Positions 9,186 to 13,989 of a stretch of DNA of 51,994 nucleotides are shown piece after piece. The notes beneath the pieces are model-generated. The model searched no databases. It was not told the DNA's origin and saw only the letters and a program-made list of their open reading frames with translations. The DNA is taken from IMG/VR virus record IMGVR_UViG_3300045988_149344. One strand, given 5' to 3'. A program made the translations under genes and the position numbers. This DNA is from a virus. Taxonomy: Duplodnaviria > Heunggongvirae > Uroviricota > Caudoviricetes. Numbering within the stretch: the first letter of the stretch is position 1; the number at the start of each line of letters is the position of its first letter.

Positions 9186-9776
<591 letters not shown>

Positions 9777-9905
9777 TTACCCGATTCTACGAGTTGTCAT
9801 TTGTTACCGGTCAGTCTACACATTTCAGATGCTGCGTTAAAAAACCCAAGTACTTCAAGTAGCACATCGTCATCAACACCCAGCCCCAAGATACGGTGAT
9901 AAAAT

Positions 9906-10940
9906 TCAAGCCTTAAGAGGCTTTGTGTATGTTCGTGTAATCCATCCAGTAATAAACTCGTCCCCTGATTTAACCTGCACGAAAAGCCATTGGCGATCTT
10001 TTTTATCTAAAACAGCCACTATAGTATTTTTGCCAATGCATTCAATCACCTCACTATTTATAGAAGGACTGACGTGTAATCTTACGTTCTCACCAGTTAT
10101 AAAACGAAAACCATTGAGATCTTCCCAACTAATTTCTTTGTTTTCTTTAATTAATTGTTGTTTTGATATTGGTTTATCCTCAAACAGAGATATAAAATAT
10201 GATTCTGCCTTGTGTATTCCCAGCAAGGTTTTCTCTTTTCCGTAATCAATAAAAGCACCAAACACAACTTGAGAAAATATAACCATTAGTAACCATTGCA
10301 GTGGATAAGGAAGCTCTTTAAATGAATCAACAAACTTTGAGCTAGGTTTATTTAATCCTTTATTTTGAACATTACTTTTGGTGTGTGATGTTTCAGTAGC
10401 ACCTTCAGCATAAGCCTGCGCAATAGATGAAATCCCCTGCTCTATTATTTGATGTAATGAAGCATTTCTTGTTCTAGCATAGTGATCTAGTACTTTCTTT
10501 ATGTCTTGGCTTACATCTATTTTATAACTTGCACTTTGTTGTAATTCTTTAAGTATCGCTTGCATGTTATTTAAACCAGCTTGCTTATTAAGCACCTCAA
10601 GCTGTTTTCGTAATGGCATAGCTATTTCGGCCTGTTTCCTTAGCATTTGAATATATCTATTTGCATCATGAGGGAAAAGAGCCTGAGTCTGTTTCTGTAA
10701 AATCGCGATATGTTCACGATACTTGCTGCCTATTCCAGCCAAGTTCGGTATACTAGCCAATTGTTTTCGAAGAGAGTTACTAATTACAGCTTGTCTATTC
10801 AATCTTGGCATATTTTGAAAAGAATGTTTTTCTATTCCTAATTGTTTTTGCAAGATCGCTACGTGATCTTTGTATGATGGAATGAGCACTGACTGTTTAT
10901 ACAGCAACTTCAACTCATTAGAATTAGTAATTTTTGTCAT
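9906..10940 (-). CDS. Membrane-anchored protein with N-terminal coiled-coil repeats, one TM helix and a C-terminal SH3b-like domain (344 aa)
   Basis: AT-rich ORF; repeated ILQKQ/LRKQ segments; hydrophobic stretch LQWLLMVIFSQVVFGAFI; C-terminal RFITGENVRLHV...GWI resembles bacterial SH3 domains. Confidence 0.45.
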   Translation of the reverse strand: MTKITNSNELKLLYKQSVLIPSYKDHVAILQKQLGIEKHSFQNMPRLNRQAVISNSLRKQLASIPNLAGIGSKYREHIAILQKQTQALFPHDANRYIQMLRKQAEIAMPLRKQLEVLNKQAGLNNMQAILKELQQSASYKIDVSQDIKKVLDHYARTRNASLHQIIEQGISSIAQAYAEGATETSHTKSNVQNKGLNKPSSKFVDSFKELPYPLQWLLMVIFSQVVFGAFIDYGKEKTLLGIHKAESYFISLFEDKPISKQQLIKENKEISWEDLNGFRFITGENVRLHVSPSINSEVIECIGKNTIVAVLDKKDRQWLFVQVKSGDEFITGWITRTYTKPLKA

Positions 10941-11014
10941 ATTATTCCATTTCTATAATAGAATATTACGCAACCAATGTTTTATTGATTGCGTTAATCT
11001 TTAACACAGAAAGA

Positions 11015-11491
11015 TCATTTGCCTCGTTTAATACATCCATCCATTTTGGCTTGTTGATACAACTTACTTAGCCCAGAAAGAGGGAATGTAGCAATTTTTT
11101 CATTATCAACATAAGCATCAATCATATTAGCATTTGAATCTGCTGCATCTTGCCAAAAGGCATACCACCAAGAATCTCCAACCATTGATCCAAGATTGCT
11201 AAAAGGATATTGATCACCATCTATAGTTAATACTATTTTATTCTTGTCAGCATTATACTCTTTTTTATTATTCGACGAACTTAGCAACAAGCCTAAACTA
11301 CCTGCACTATCTGGTGAACCATACATGAATCCCATATCACATAAAAAACTTATCTTATCACCATTATGATTATGGATTGTATATTCTCTCCCCCCTCTCT
11401 CTTCAATTACATTCCATTGTAGAGGATCAATTTTTGCAAATGTTCCTGCTGAAACTAACGATACAAATAATAAAAACCATCTCATATTCAT
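11015..11491 (-). CDS. Secreted/periplasmic protein with signal peptide (158 aa)
   Basis: N-terminus MNMRWFLLFVSLVSAGTFA is a typical Sec signal peptide; AT-rich; two Cys residues in the mature part. Confidence 0.45.
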   Translation of the reverse strand: MNMRWFLLFVSLVSAGTFAKIDPLQWNVIEERGGREYTIHNHNGDKISFLCDMGFMYGSPDSAGSLGLLLSSSNNKKEYNADKNKIVLTIDGDQYPFSNLGSMVGDSWWYAFWQDAADSNANMIDAYVDNEKIATFPLSGLSKLYQQAKMDGCIKRGK

Positions 11492-11513
11492 TCTTTTCGC
11501 TTCTTATCTGTAA

Positions 11514-11864
11514 TTATTCTGCAATATCATTTGCCCATTGCACGGCAGCAAAATGAGTACCCAAACCACTCAGGAAAGCAATTACCCCCAAAACAATACT
11601 TGCTGCTGTTGATTCAAACAAAGTACCAATACTATAGCCAATAGCTCCCCATACTAAGCTAAATACAATCATCAATGGTATTGCTAGAAATTTTATTCTT
11701 AAACTAAAAATCAGTCCAAGAAAAGAACCGCCAAAGGCCCACCATGATTTAGACATTAAACCTATCAGTATTGACAGAATTCCTATTTCAATAAAGAGAA
11801 TATTAGATTGCTCTTCATTGAATTTCGCATTTGTTACACCTTTACGAACATGTTCAGATGACAT
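11514..11864 (-). CDS. Small multi-pass inner-membrane protein (116 aa)
   Basis: Three to four hydrophobic helices; AGGAG ribosome binding site upstream of ATG at 11864-11862; first gene of an AT-rich three-gene unit. Confidence 0.45.
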   Translation of the reverse strand: MSSEHVRKGVTNAKFNEEQSNILFIEIGILSILIGLMSKSWWAFGGSFLGLIFSLRIKFLAIPLMIVFSLVWGAIGYSIGTLFESTAASIVLGVIAFLSGLGTHFAAVQWANDIAE

Positions 11865-11913
11865 GATTAACTATCTCCTGCCACAGATAAAACGCCTTAA
11901 AATAACATTTTGT

Positions 11914-11942
11914 AGCATAAAGTTTCACCATGCAATGGTCAA
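11914..11942 (-). promoter_or_regulatory. Sigma70-like promoter for the AT-rich module (-35 TTGACC, 17-bp spacer, -10 TATGCT)
   Basis: Read on the minus strand: TTGACC (11942-11937), 17 nt, TATGCT (11919-11914), about 45 nt upstream of the 116-aa gene RBS. Confidence 0.35.
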
Positions 11943-11953
11943 AATCTTTGACC
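11937..11953. promoter_or_regulatory. Perfect 17-bp palindrome GGTCAAA-ATC-TTTGACC overlapping the -35 box
   Basis: Exact inverted repeat; each half contains a TTGACC hexamer, one per strand, in the divergent region between the AT-rich module and immI. Confidence 0.4.
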
Positions 11954-12010
11954 CATATCAATTAAACTCATACATTTTAGTTACCAGAGAAATAATTTAC
12001 ATGGTTGCAA

Positions 12011-12027
12011 GTTGCTCTAATTATTTT
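12011..12027 (+). promoter_or_regulatory. C1 repressor operator-like site (14/17 match), candidate Op51
   Basis: GTTGCTCTAATTATTTT versus consensus ATTGCTCTAATAAATTT; located upstream of the icd-ant region. Confidence 0.4.
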
Positions 12028-12099
12028 ATTTTTTTAGCTTCATATGCTACATTAACTTGCTTGCGTGCTAATGCATTTTCGGTTTATCCTAAACAGGCA

Positions 12100-12176
12100 T
12101 CTTAGTAACACGGATGCCGGGATTGGAACCCCGGATAATGCAAAAGGCGACATAGACGCCAAAAGCGTCTTTTTTT
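12100..12176 (+). ncRNA. Candidate c4-like antisense RNA of immI (boundaries uncertain)
   Basis: About 75-nt structured segment upstream of icd: hairpin CCGGGATTGGAACCCCGG, then hairpin AGACGC-CAAAA-GCGTCT plus T6 (12154-12176). The loop sequence GATTGGAACC recurs at 12305-12314, and GTTCCAACC, complementary to GGTTGGAAC and one mismatch from the loop complement, lies at 12276-12284. Confidence 0.3.
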
Positions 12177-12361
12177 GTGTCATGCCATCGCACAACCATA
12201 CGTAGCACATAGCTCCGAGATCAATGGTAGTGCTGGCTGGGCTGCCGAAAGGCAGGCCGGTTCCCTTTTGCGCCGGTAGTTCCAACCCAGTCAGTGCTAC
12301 CGCCATTGAGATTGGAACCTCACGCGGTAGCTCCTTAAATTAGCAAAAGGAGGCTGCCATT

Positions 12362-12583
12362 GTGGCTACTATCCCTACCCCTACTCATCCTGAATTTATC
12401 TGGCGCTTTTACTCCTGCCAAAAACACCACTATCACTTCGTTATCGCAGCAACAGAAGACGAAGCACGCTCTCAATTGCCTGATGGCCCCTGCATTTTTA
12501 CTGCCCGTTTTTCAACTAACTCGCGCAATTCACTTAGTTACTGGAGCCTCCCCTTCTCTGCCGACGTTCAGGGGGGTTTATGA
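12362..12583 (+). CDS. icd: Icd-like small protein (73 aa), GTG start, overlaps ant start
   Basis: 73-codon ORF ending 4 nt after the ant ATG (translational coupling), as in P1 immI. Confidence 0.5.
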   Translation: MATIPTPTHPEFIWRFYSCQKHHYHFVIAATEDEARSQLPDGPCIFTARFSTNSRNSLSYWSLPFSADVQGGL

Positions 12584-13989
12584 AAACACCTCTCGTCACC
12601 CGTAATGAAATAGCCGAAGCGATCGCCTTGCATACTGCCTGTATGCCGACACGGGAGATCCCCGGCGCAATTGCTAACTATTTCATGATAACCAGACGTT
12701 TTTATACCCGAACAGATAAGGCTGTGATCAACAGGCTACTGATAGCCGAGATCAGGGATTATTTGATTGAACAAGGACGTCTACGTTACGCAACAGTGGC
12801 AGCAGAAATGAGAAAGGAGGCACATAGAATGACCGGTAATAATTTAAATGTTGAAAAAACAGCACCTGTTGCTTCAGCTACGCCATCACCAGCTGTGAAT
12901 GTTATCTCCAACACTGGAGACACAATCGACAGCCAGACACTGTTAAAGATGGTCAATGAAGCGCGTAAGTTATGTGGGGAACCAGAGGTTCGGAACAACA
13001 AATTCATCGAAAAAATACTCGACGAATTAGAAGGTGAGGACGGTTACACAAAAAGTGCAACCGTGCCGCCAGGTGGCGGTACGCCTATGGTTGTCATAAC
13101 CATGACCTACAAACAAGCCCTGCGAGTTGCCGCGCGCGAGTCAAAAGCGGTCCGCCGTTCGCTACATACCATGATTCAGGCATTGGAACCTATAAATGTT
13201 GAAAATCATCCTGATGAAATTCCCGTTCTGGAATGGCAGGGAGTACGCGTCGTGACAACCGAGACTCTTGCTAGAGGGTATGGCACTACACCTACTCGTA
13301 TTCAGCAGAACTACAATCGCAATGAAGAACGATTTGTAGAGGGTAAACACTTCTTTAAAATCAAAGGAGATGAGATAAAAAGTTTGCGACTATCTTTTAG
13401 CGAGTTGCAAATTTCCCCCAAGACCAGATCCTTAATACTCTGGACCGAACGCGGAGCGGCACGCATGTCTAAGATCGTAGACACAGAGCAAGCGTGGGCA
13501 TTCTTTGAAAAACTGGAAGACAGCTACTTCCGGCAAAAAGAACAGCAACCGGTCGCAATCCCCCAGACGCTTCCCGAAGCTCTGCGCCTGGCTGCCGAGC
13601 TGGCTGAACAAAAGCAGCTACTGGAACAGAAAACCCACCAGCTAAATCAACAGCTGGTGGCCGCAGCCCCTAAAGTCGATTTTGCCGACCGGGTATCAGC
13701 GGCTAATGGAATCCTGATCGGGAACTTTGCAAAGGTCGTTGGACTTAAGCAAAACGCCCTTTTCTCATGGTTGCGCCAGAACGGCATTCTCATGGCTTTT
13801 GGTGCGCGCAAAAACGTACCGCGCCAGCAGTACATTAACGCCGGGTATTTCACGGTGAAAGAAGTGGTGCTGGATGATGAAAATGGCTACCAGATACGGC
13901 TGACGCCCCAATTAACGGGTAAAGGCCAGCAGTGGTTAACTCGCAAGCTACTTGATGCTGGTTTGTTAAAACCAGTAGCAATAGGTTAA
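12580..13989 (+). CDS. ant: Antirepressor Ant (469 aa) with Bro-N/ORF6N-like middle and KilAC-type C-terminal domain
   Basis: C-terminal 130 aa nearly collinear with the KilA C-terminus (PEALRLAAELAEQKQ...GKGQQWL); immediately follows icd. Confidence 0.7.
   Translation: MKTPLVTRNEIAEAIALHTACMPTREIPGAIANYFMITRRFYTRTDKAVINRLLIAEIRDYLIEQGRLRYATVAAEMRKEAHRMTGNNLNVEKTAPVASATPSPAVNVISNTGDTIDSQTLLKMVNEARKLCGEPEVRNNKFIEKILDELEGEDGYTKSATVPPGGGTPMVVITMTYKQALRVAARESKAVRRSLHTMIQALEPINVENHPDEIPVLEWQGVRVVTTETLARGYGTTPTRIQQNYNRNEERFVEGKHFFKIKGDEIKSLRLSFSELQISPKTRSLILWTERGAARMSKIVDTEQAWAFFEKLEDSYFRQKEQQPVAIPQTLPEALRLAAELAEQKQLLEQKTHQLNQQLVAAAPKVDFADRVSAANGILIGNFAKVVGLKQNALFSWLRQNGILMAFGARKNVPRQQYINAGYFTVKEVVLDDENGYQIRLTPQLTGKGQQWLTRKLLDAGLLKPVAIG

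Follow-up and report, generated by a model that had tools for sequence, protein, structure and literature searches.

Since the 1980s, phage P1 has been known to exclude superinfecting phages, but little is understood of how this works and how diverse it is. P1-like phage-plasmids are also important carriers of ESBL and mcr genes. In this study, which was based on a 51,994-nt stretch of DNA from a virus of the Caudoviricetes (IMG/VR record IMGVR_UViG_3300045988_149344; hereafter the window), we asked what the three AT-rich genes that occupy the position of the P1 sim locus are, how they relate to sim and whether they may help the lysogen to keep other phages out.

Position, composition and boundaries of the cassette

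An earlier note, made from the letters of the DNA, had described three co-oriented genes for proteins of 116, 158 and 344 aa that are transcribed divergently from immI and form a block more AT-rich than its surroundings, and had suggested horizontal acquisition. All of this was borne out. The ORFs are present, all on the minus strand and thus divergent from immI, and GC amounts to 34.2% in 9906-11864 compared with 47.5% over the full window. Among 1-kb bins, the two that span 10001-12000 form the GC minimum of the 52 kb (33-34%; the next-lowest bin has 42%). A low-GC variable sim region has already been reported for P1-like phage-plasmids (PMC9603915). The locus comprises the following features:

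9784..9802, minus strand: left boundary, LPsit, the P1-conserved late promoter of the pmgC-tub-pmgB-sit operon (P1 annotation)
9906..10940, minus strand: gene of the 344-aa protein (variable helical repeats, one transmembrane helix, linker, SH3b)
9908..9923, minus strand: short hairpin over the stop codon of the 344-aa gene, then a weak T-run (terminator-like scan)
10968..10994, minus strand: hairpin within the 74 nt that separate the 158-aa gene from the 344-aa gene (terminator-like scan)
11015..11491, minus strand: gene of the 158-aa protein, predicted secreted, YfjT/YkfB family (Pfam PF27224), signal peptide, conserved C51 and C153
11514..11864, minus strand: gene of the 116-aa protein, first of the cassette; a small protein of the inner membrane, predicted to have four transmembrane helices
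11914..11942, minus strand: sigma-70-type promoter-like site ahead of the 116-aa gene, TTGACC-17 nt-TATGCT (consensus scan)
11937..11953, no strand: perfect palindrome GGTCAAA-ATC-TTTGACC (read from the sequence)
12011..12027, plus strand: right boundary, C1 operator-like site GTTGCTCTAATTATTTT at the Oc4 position, head of immI (consensus scan)
12097..12307, plus strand: immI leader RNAs, an isrK-like element (12097-12175) and C4 antisense RNA (12220-12307)

The placement of the genes at the position of sim was also accurate, as the cassette lies between LPsit and the immI C1 operator, exactly where P1 has simA-simB-simC. Homology to P1 stops at 9805, 3 bp past the -22 box of LPsit, and restarts at 12389, in icd; the flanks are 95-98% identical to P1, and the P1 counterpart of the gap between 9805 and 12389 is simC-simB-simA. 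LPsit is located at P1 46608-46626, and P1 46524-46629 aligns to 9700-9805 of the window with 97% identity. The block is an AT-rich accessory cassette that has been exchanged horizontally at this position. On its right side, the C1 operator-like site has three mismatches to the consensus, and the window contains nine such sites compared with 0.27 expected. Both leader RNAs scored above their Rfam gathering scores (isrK-like, 55.1 bits against 50; C4 antisense RNA, 76.7 bits against 45).

A canonical promoter had been claimed for the cassette. A site was indeed found 43 nt upstream of the ATG of the 116-aa gene, but with 9 of 12 consensus positions it is good rather than canonical. The AT-rich region holds eight promoter-like sites compared with 9.5 ± 3.3 in shuffled sequences, i.e., they are not enriched, and because such sites are no commoner than in the shuffles, the cassette's own promoter is a prediction only, as is the expression in the lysogen that it would drive. 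The palindrome contains the -35 hexamers of this leftward site and of a rightward one (11948..11976). A distance of 69 bp separates the leftward site from the C1 operator-like site, so that control of it by C1 is improbable.

The hairpin over the 344-aa stop codon may act as a weak terminator before the late operon. As the three genes are co-oriented with pmgC-tub-pmgB-sit and directly upstream of it, with only this weak terminator-like hairpin between, they could be accessory to the phage's own lytic cycle, being co-transcribed with the late tail operon and acting in infection, lysis timing or egress, e.g., by modulating Sit or peptidoglycan. We regard such a role as improbable. LPsit is found downstream of the cassette, not upstream, and a knock-down of simABC in P1 left plaque formation unaffected, and sim is dispensable for lytic growth (PMC10695390).

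The three predicted envelope proteins

The earlier note had assigned all three products to the envelope, and hydropathy agrees with this prediction, showing transmembrane segments or a signal-like segment in each. Four segments of the 116-aa protein are hydrophobic, and it has 13 homologues, the lowest identity among which is 58%. It belongs to no named family. Some of its homologues are solitary in unrelated contexts, while others adjoin YfjT-family or SimA-like genes. Neither this protein nor the 158-aa protein matched anything in the copies of Pfam, NCBIfam and PADLOC that were searched, the Pfam and NCBIfam copies being without the PF27224 model.

The note had recognised none of the proteins, which does not hold for the 158-aa protein, a member of the YfjT/YkfB family. 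PF27224, which carries the Pfam name 'YfjT', is precomputed on a 98%-identical cluster representative, and the PGAP product name is 'YfjT/YkfB family phage-associated protein'. K-12 YfjT matched the window protein in BLASTP with E = 1e-6 at 26% identity and a profile of 14 relatives with E = 4.4e-36 over 152 columns. The N-terminus has a signal-like hydrophobic segment, MNMRWFLLFVSLVSAGTFA followed by K. An N-terminal hydrophobic leader is present in every member of the family alignment, in which C51 is invariant and C153 nearly so. The signal peptide and the cysteine pair thus predict an exported protein of the disulfide-bonded type; its AF2 model reached a pLDDT of 85 and a pTM of 0.77. YfjT and YkfB, from the K-12 cryptic prophages CP4-57 and CP4-6, resemble it in size (about 155 aa), signal peptide, cysteine pair and Trp residues, and the yfjT gene, like the 158-aa gene, follows the gene of a small membrane-associated protein. 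The partners differ, being a four-transmembrane protein for the 158-aa protein and the inner-membrane lipoproteins YfjS/YafY for YfjT/YkfB. In CP4-57, yfjT is located a few kb from abpAB and rnlAB. A context search of the family across species-representative genomes found two loci; the one chromosomal homologue found there, in Enterobacter, lies beside the T6SS genes hcp, a clpV fragment and an OmpA-like gene. The YfjT/YkfB family is part of the y-ome, i.e., uncharacterised, and our literature search on yfjT/ykfB function or on alternative sim-slot cassettes found no functional work.

The 344-aa protein consists of a variable helical repeat region (residues 1 to about 205), a transmembrane helix (213-234), a conserved linker of about 45 aa and an SH3b domain (285-338). 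SH3_3 (PF08239) matched residues 285-338 with E = 1.1e-5 and 26.0 bits, just below the gathering score of 27, and it matched all 35 aligned relatives, with a best E of 1.3e-9. In the family alignment, the C-terminal 135 aa are invariant, whereas the N-terminus varies in the number of repeats; the window allele has a novel 5' end that is shorter than those of its relatives. An AF2 model built on the 35-sequence alignment was poor (pLDDT 42) and informative for secondary structure only, with a beta-rich SH3b part at low confidence. The family is confined to the sim slot of P1-like elements. The SH3b domain most likely faces the periplasm, an assumption made because the protein lacks a signal peptide; the flanking charges, counted by the positive-inside rule across the whole family, favour neither side. 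A membrane-tethered DNA-binding domain of the ribbon-helix-helix type at residues of about 120-175 was considered and rejected. Pfam RHH_1 gave E = 0.1 and an Arc-like PHROG family E = 0.004, a profile of the sub-alignment found no significant match in the PDB (the best RHH protein was CdbA, E = 0.8), and conservation of the segment does not extend to distant family members.

SH3b domains are a typical feature of lysis enzymes that bind the cell wall, which would suit the lytic role considered above, and the C-terminal 55 residues are indeed like the bacterial SH3_3 cell-wall-binding domains. However, the PHROG amidase match is weak, and the domain has no hydrolase attached to it but is joined by its linker to a single transmembrane helix behind long variable repeats. 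None of the three proteins is a known virion or lysis component: they belong to phrog_7086, phrog_3429 and, for the 116-aa protein, phrog_15014, all of which are function-unassigned.

That the genes are real follows from their homologues, which each of them has, and from their substitution patterns. Between close alleles, dN/dS was 0.07 for the 116-aa protein (against the allele of locus L004), 0.22 for the 158-aa protein and, in the 344-aa protein, 0.21 over its C-terminal part, so that all three genes are under purifying selection. We consider it extremely unlikely that the block is mere AT-rich filler without a function, or a remnant in decay. The lack of functional annotation would fit such an origin, as would the repeat-rich N-terminus of the 344-aa protein with its fast evolution (dN/dS 0.62) and its novel, shorter 5' end. 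Nevertheless, the ORFs are intact, the dN/dS values of 0.07-0.22 point the other way, and the SH3b residues and the cysteine pair have been kept across genera.

Variation at the sim slot and the relation to P1 sim

A survey of 68 P1-like contigs placed the window cassette among the alleles of the sim slot, which is hypervariable in P1-like phage-plasmids. At least five alternative, unrelated cassettes occur in near-identical backbones. The commonest occupant and constant element is a YfjT-family gene (36 of 68 loci), while the classical simABC is found in 15 of the 68 and is thus a minority occupant of a fast-turning slot, the family that dominates it being the one that is also present in two K-12 cryptic prophages. 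The surveyed occupants (SimA/B/C, SimA-long, the YfjT family, an SJ46 lipoprotein with weak similarity to TraT, DUF5384 and DUF4760) are all predicted to be of the envelope type, having a signal peptide, a lipobox or transmembrane segments. The three genes of the window are absent from P1, P7, SJ46 and most P1-like contigs. The immI leader allele of the window accompanies all 10 loci in which the 116-aa gene comes first and none of the 59 other loci.

The single three-component module proposed in the earlier note did not survive this comparison, since the genes recombine independently across P1-like loci. A single obligate complex, in which the inner-membrane protein, the periplasmic protein and the SH3b anchor would act only jointly, seems very unlikely to us, even though the genes are tightly packed and the block is 99-100% conserved in 37 of 5,426 complete E. 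coli genomes and in 27 plasmids. The SH3b gene always follows a YfjT-family gene (15/15), whose end overlaps the SH3b start in locus L003, and it occurs nowhere else among the surveyed loci; the two YfjT lineages that it accompanies are 30% identical to each other. However, the 116-aa and 158-aa genes are found together with DUF4760 replacing the SH3b gene, the SH3b gene is found with a different YfjT-family gene and with SimA-long in place of the 116-aa gene, and 116-aa homologues occur alone. Moreover, the recombination junctions coincide with gene boundaries: the homology of L004 and L003 to the window begins at 11021, just past the stop codon of the 158-aa gene, and the hairpin at 10968..10994 adjoins this junction. 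The parts of the cassette are modular toolkit genes, not an obligate three-protein complex.

The statement that nothing identifies the proteins as sim stands in part. BLASTP of the three proteins found no match to SimB or SimC better than E = 0.7, and when the YfjT-family profile was compared with SimC and SimB in hhalign, only the signal peptides aligned (probability about 1%). On the other hand, the same families recur beside full-length SimA, of which the P1 simA gene looks like a truncated 5' remnant. A Salmonella P1-like element carries SimA-long, a 116-like and a YfjT-family gene together, and an unrelated metagenome contig has a SimA-like domain beside a 116-like gene. In Cronobacter phage JK004, SimA-long and a YfjT-family gene lie upstream of pmgC, between late structural operons, and immI is not adjacent. 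That a YfjT-family gene still adjoins pmgC in this distant phage speaks for the lytic role, as does the presence of YfjT-like genes in lytic jumbo phages of Serratia and Pectobacterium. Against it, near-identical P1-like phages carry other cassettes or none of these genes and hence need no conserved lytic contribution from them.

Proposed superinfection exclusion and comparison with known systems

Taken as a sim-slot allele and a moron-type envelope cassette, the three genes most likely function in superinfection exclusion in the lysogen, a reading to which we give roughly an even chance. It is suggested because the cassette replaces sim exactly and P1 sim is an exclusion function, and because the turnover of the slot in near-identical backbones is the pattern that is expected of conflict loci. 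All of the slot occupants are envelope proteins, low GC is shared with P1 sim, SimA-long, 116-like and YfjT neighbours recur across divergent elements, and the SH3b gene is bound to the context of YfjT-family genes. Additionally, K-12 yfjT lies in a defence neighbourhood, the close alleles are under purifying selection, and proteins without virion or lysis annotation are concerned, which P1 does without. No defence model of PADLOC-DB 2.0 matched the three proteins, SimC or the other slot occupants, and since it is silent on SimC too, this library does not cover superinfection exclusion. We counted against exclusion the lack of any defence-model match, the absence of SimB/SimC homology, a promoter of a kind no rarer than chance would give, the orientation of the SH3b domain, which the charges leave undecided, and the arrangement in JK004, which is equally compatible with a lytic-cycle role. 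AT-rich genes may also be silenced by H-NS, and the phenotype of P1 sim itself is seen chiefly when the genes are present in many copies.

In this explanation, simABC has given way, between LPsit and the immI operator, to a low-GC, moron-type envelope gene cassette. Its core is the predicted periplasmic YfjT/YkfB-family protein, paired here with the predicted four-transmembrane inner-membrane protein, and the 344-aa protein would be anchored in the inner membrane, with its conserved TM-linker-SH3b part most likely in the periplasm. Exclusion would then be exerted in the periplasm or inner membrane of the lysogen, after adsorption, where the tail tip or transglycosylase of an incoming phage, P1-like or other, could be hindered in penetrating, or its DNA in entering. 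The P1 tail transglycosylase Sit is a possible target.

The cassette might instead serve a lysogenic conversion unrelated to phages, such as immunity to T6SS or colicin toxins, tolerance of envelope stress, adhesion or host interaction, which we think unlikely. The Enterobacter homologue beside T6SS genes points in this direction, as do the pairing of YfjT/YkfB with inner-membrane lipoproteins, the resemblance of the SJ46 lipoprotein to TraT, which is also a serum-resistance factor, and the size of the 116-aa protein, small multi-pass proteins of this size presumably resembling the immunity proteins of pore-forming colicins. However, the structural matches are all weak, adjacency to T6SS genes was seen in one case only and on the opposite strand, P1 defines the slot by anti-phage exclusion, and allelic turnover linked to the immunity region better fits a conflict between phages.

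More tentatively, we suggest that the YfjT/YkfB periplasmic proteins could be effectors of an unrecognised, widespread class of prophage entry blockers, which are swapped at the sim slot with interchangeable membrane partners (a SimA-domain protein, the four-transmembrane protein or the SH3b anchor); the slot would be linked to the c4/immI allele, so that immunity and exclusion types would form one supergene. If exclusion proves true, a y-ome family gains a function, a toolkit of periplasmic entry blockers is defined, and it becomes easier to explain which P1-like phage-plasmids co-infect or displace each other; if it proves false, the cassette is another uncharacterised moron.

Among known systems, the P1 sim (superimmunity) locus is the closest in position. 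Lying in the same slot, with LPsit on one side and the C1 operator/c4 on the other, it is transcribed leftward and has a similarly low GC content (33.6%). Its products, like those predicted for the cassette, are all exported, and sim is dispensable for lytic growth. The contents differ, as the cassette encodes the four-transmembrane, YfjT-family and SH3b membrane proteins, whose one link to the Sim proteins is that their families co-occur with full-length SimA. P1 sim blocks infection after adsorption (Kliem and Dreiseikelmann 1989, as cited in PMC8546580).

Several other exclusion proteins offer a functional parallel. T4 Imm in the inner membrane, T4 Sp (spackle), a periplasmic inhibitor of the tail lysozyme, and P22 SieA block DNA entry after adsorption, and P1 SimC acts at the same post-adsorption step. 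By analogy, T4 Imm and Sp and P22 SieA may be likened to the cassette in architecture only, i.e., as inner-membrane or periplasmic proteins; they have no detectable homology to it and are single proteins with demonstrated phenotypes, whereas the function of the cassette is a proposed one. With phage morons the cassette shares the abrupt drop in GC, the promoter-like and terminator-like sites, the position between two phage operons and the accessory envelope functions that its products are predicted to have. Unlike a simple moron insertion, it replaces an existing cassette by allelic exchange, and its expression from the prophage is a predicted one.

Gene content and position of the cassette

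The window belongs to a P1-like phage-plasmid. Its homology to phage P1 stops at 9805, 3 bp beyond the -22 box of LPsit (the late promoter of pmgC-tub-pmgB-sit), and restarts at 12389, within icd. Because this interval holds simC-simB-simA, PsimA, the C1 operator Oc4 and c4 in P1, the cassette block is an allelic replacement of sim, which agrees with the earlier note that had placed it at the sim position. The three co-oriented genes that had been described were present, all on the minus strand; homologues were found for each of them, and all three are real genes.

Features of the cassette and the immI leader
10940..9906, minus: ORF, 344-aa protein
11491..11015, minus: ORF, 158-aa protein
11864..11514, minus: ORF, 116-aa protein
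11942..11914, minus: promoter-like site TTGACC-17-TATGCT (9/12 consensus positions)
11937-11953: perfect 7-3-7 palindrome GGTCAAA-ATC-TTTGACC (sequence and promoter scan)
12011-12027: C1 operator-like site
12097-12175: isrK-like element (Rfam, above gathering score)
12220-12307: C4 antisense RNA (Rfam)

The claimed AT-richness was borne out by a GC of 34.2% for the block compared with 47.5% for the whole window, and the two 1-kb bins at 10001-12000 were the lowest in the 52 kb. The P1 sim region is as AT-rich (33.6%). That the sim region is variable and low in GC has been reported before as a general phenomenon, under the name 'variable region 4' of P1-like phage-plasmids (PMC9603915). New here are the specific slot content, in which the YfjT/YkfB family predominates, the inferred origin of P1 simA as a remnant, the network of SimA-domain, 116-aa, YfjT and SH3b neighbours and the linkage of the cassette to the c4 allele. 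Between close alleles, dN/dS was 0.07 for the 116-aa gene, 0.22 for the 158-aa gene and 0.21 for the transmembrane-SH3b part of the 344-aa protein, with 0.62 for the repeat-rich N-terminus of the latter; this selection on the genes contradicts the view that the cassette is junk.

A sigma70 promoter of its own had also been attributed to the block. A site with 9/12 matches was present, but 8 promoter-like sites were found in this AT-rich DNA against 9.5 +/- 3.3 expected from shuffles, and since such sites are not enriched, the promoter stays a prediction. The arms of the palindrome form the back-to-back -35-like hexamers of leftward and rightward divergent promoter-like sites, and it could be a binding site for a regulator.

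Slot occupants and linkage to the immunity region

Eighty IMG/VR contigs were retrieved via PmgC, and the pmgC-icd interval was complete and could be typed in 68.

Occupants of the slot (loci among 68)
SimA-long (172-224 aa, secreted) + YfjT-family gene: 18
SJ46 type, lipoprotein + DUF5384 secreted protein: 16
simA-simB-simC, P1 arrangement: 15
SimA-long + second YfjT-family lineage + SH3b: 8
116+158+344 set of the window (99-100% identity): 6
116+158 + opposite-strand DUF4760 gene: 3
Hybrids: 2

Counted over all types, a YfjT-family gene was present at 36 loci, an SH3b gene at 15 and the 116-aa gene at nine. SH3b lay directly downstream of a YfjT-family gene in 15/15 cases, which involved two YfjT lineages that are ~30% identical. 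The cassette junctions coincide with gene boundaries; homology of a related cassette allele (L004) and of plasmid pRHB25-C13_2 (L003) to the window begins at 11021, immediately past the 158-aa stop codon. Moreover, the plasmid carries a 445-bp remnant (L003 3736-4179; 93% identity) of the window's 158-aa gene downstream of its SimA-long/YfjT/SH3b set, which shows an insertion of one cassette into another. Given these contents and junctions, the genes behave like a shuffled toolkit and not like a fixed three-component system; the single module of the earlier note thus comes apart across the typed loci, and an obligate three-protein complex is contradicted by the same shuffling. The full block was found in 27/509 matching PLSDB plasmids and 37/5,426 complete E. 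coli genomes, the carriers being nearly always plasmids of about 95 kb.

In some cassettes, the SH3b gene is replaced by a gene for a DUF4760 membrane protein (L004 2784-3677 and L003 2716-3678, both plus strand), which had no match in PADLOC. The slot of phage SJ46 (L005 4134-5198) holds two genes, one for a lipoprotein that contains a glycine-zipper segment, the other for a DUF5384 secreted coiled-coil protein. The lipoprotein shows weak similarity to TraT, the surface-exclusion protein of the F plasmid (E = 7e-5, under the gathering score), and its GenBank name 'DNA methyltransferase' looks wrong.

By sequence, the immI leader, from the first cassette gene to icd, forms two clusters. The window type, with the isrK-like element and C4, was found in 10/10 loci with the 116-aa gene in first place and in 0/59 others, all of which have the second type. 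Since leader type tracks cassette type, the segment swapped with respect to P1 spans 9806-12388 (cassette plus c4 specificity region). The linkage of leader to cassette suggests that immunity specificity moves along with cassette type in such exchanges. The leader at 12000-12388 differs from P1, as the cassette does. A RefSeq 39-aa 'ash family protein' CDS (e.g. WP_001396852.1; 12224-12343, plus) overlaps the C4 antisense RNA and is probably a mis-annotated C4 RNA gene. The antirepressor ORF after icd (12580-13989, plus) encodes 469 aa with ORF6N and ANT domains, whereas P1 Ant1 has 347 aa; in an identical plasmid, RefSeq annotates only the 268-aa C-terminal part. Eight further C1-operator-like sites (14068, 29215, 32737, 32748, 43171, 46795, 46844, 48936), with <=3 mismatches to ATTGCTCTAATAAATTT and 0.27 expected by chance, are in keeping with a P1-type immunity network.

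Protein families of the cassette

Contrary to the earlier note, which had recognised none of the proteins, the 158-aa protein is identifiable by its sequence matches as a YfjT/YkfB family member: Pfam PF27224 ('YfjT') is precomputed on its 98%-identical cluster representative, PGAP names it 'YfjT/YkfB family phage-associated protein', and E. coli K-12 YfjT matched a 14-sequence profile of the family (E = 4.4e-36). Hydropathy indicated a cleavable-looking leader, MNMRWFLLFVSLVSAGTFA followed by K. The family is small (~20 clusters in 1.84 billion representatives), conserves a Cys pair and Trp residues, and no functional literature on it was found. The AF2 model, with the family alignment as input, was confident (pLDDT 85, pTM 0.77); Foldseek gave no significant neighbour in the PDB, lysozyme or transglycosylase inhibitor folds were absent among the top structural matches, and the structural neighbours were weak, among them a Serratia jumbo-phage 'putative adhesin' in BFVD (E = 2e-10, TM 0.72). 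In K-12 CP4-57, yfjT is preceded by ypjK (small membrane protein) and yfjS (inner-membrane lipoprotein) and has the anti-phage loci abpAB and rnlAB a few kb away. The sole chromosomal YfjT-family gene found among GTDB species representatives, in Enterobacter sp. UNJFSC 003 (L087 4581-5444), follows the gene of an unrelated 116-aa membrane protein and lies ~1.5 kb from T6SS genes on the opposite strand (hcp, OmpA-like, clpV fragment). Distant members (24.8-26% identity) occur in Serratia phage 2050HW (L093 2974-3417) and four related Serratia/Pectobacterium jumbo phages of ~275 kb, which we take to be lytic; the family is therefore not confined to temperate elements.

The 344-aa protein has a single transmembrane segment (213-234) by hydropathy and a C-terminal SH3_3 match (E = 1.1e-5; 26.0 bits, gathering score 27) shared by 35/35 aligned relatives. 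Its family is limited to ~95-kb contigs of Escherichia, Citrobacter, Salmonella, Pseudocitrobacter and Yersinia; in the family alignment (A1), the C-terminal 135 residues are nearly invariant and the N-terminus is built of short helical repeats in varying number. These tandem repeats are of ~20 aa, e.g. SVSLSERITKLAQGSTIAD (P0042-P0046, Citrobacter werkmanii and relatives), and their copy number varies by allele, giving total lengths of 344-481 aa with an invariant transmembrane-SH3b part. AF2 was unusable here (pLDDT 42). The flanking charges do not settle the orientation of the protein; the predicted one depends solely on the absence of a signal peptide ahead of the 210-aa N-terminus. The 116-aa protein has four hydrophobic segments by hydropathy and no named family. 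None of the three proteins matched PADLOC (which has no SimC model either), NCBIfam or annotated PHROGs.

The cassette families recur as neighbours over larger distances. In Cronobacter phage JK004, SimA-long (79% identity) and a YfjT-like gene lie directly upstream of pmgC, with immI not adjacent; a Salmonella P1-like element (PmgC 75% identical) combines SimA-long (58%), a 116-aa homologue (72%) and a YfjT-like gene; and in an unrelated metagenome contig, the gene of a DUF4431 protein with a SimA-like C-terminal domain (28% identity, E = 3e-10) immediately precedes that of a 116-aa homologue (66%). Of the 116-aa homologues that stand alone, one has a chromosomal setting, a second comes after an AAA_15/21 ATPase in Vibrio and a third lies beside an integrase.

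Proposed exclusion function and the relation to P1 sim

These results are consistent with a moron-type cassette of envelope genes at a hot spot of conflict, and its most likely function, to which we give about an even chance, is superinfection exclusion at a periplasmic or inner-membrane step. This is favoured by the exact allelism with a locus which in P1 keeps superinfecting phage out at a step after adsorption (Kliem & Dreiseikelmann 1989, as cited in PMC8546580), by the export or membrane location of every alternative occupant, including the weakly TraT-like lipoprotein, by the fast replacement of cassettes in backbones that are otherwise 95-99% identical, and by purifying selection on each gene together with dispensability for the phage, simABC not being needed for P1 plaque formation (PMC10695390). 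The weak IalB and 'adhesin' matches and the one T6SS-adjacent homologue would instead point to non-phage lysogenic conversion, e.g. toxin immunity or adhesion, while the orientation shared with the tail operon, the gene order in JK004 and the homologues in lytic jumbo phages would speak for an accessory role in the lytic cycle. Under superinfection exclusion, the cassette would centre on the YfjT-family protein, with the 116-aa and SH3b proteins as exchangeable partners; export and topology of the products, expression in the lysogen and an exclusion phenotype are inferred. Of the first reading, the three-gene low-GC block at the sim position stands, and its interpretation is supported in part.

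In line with the caution of the earlier note, BLASTP and hhalign revealed no similarity of the three to SimB or SimC. SimA-long is a secreted protein of most other P1-like elements (e.g. L015 4740-5414; L029 4379-5044). P1 SimA has only 52 aa (L001 6389-6547), of which the first ~45 are identical to the SimA-long N-terminus and the rest diverge, and P1 simA would thus be a truncated remnant of an earlier cassette swap.
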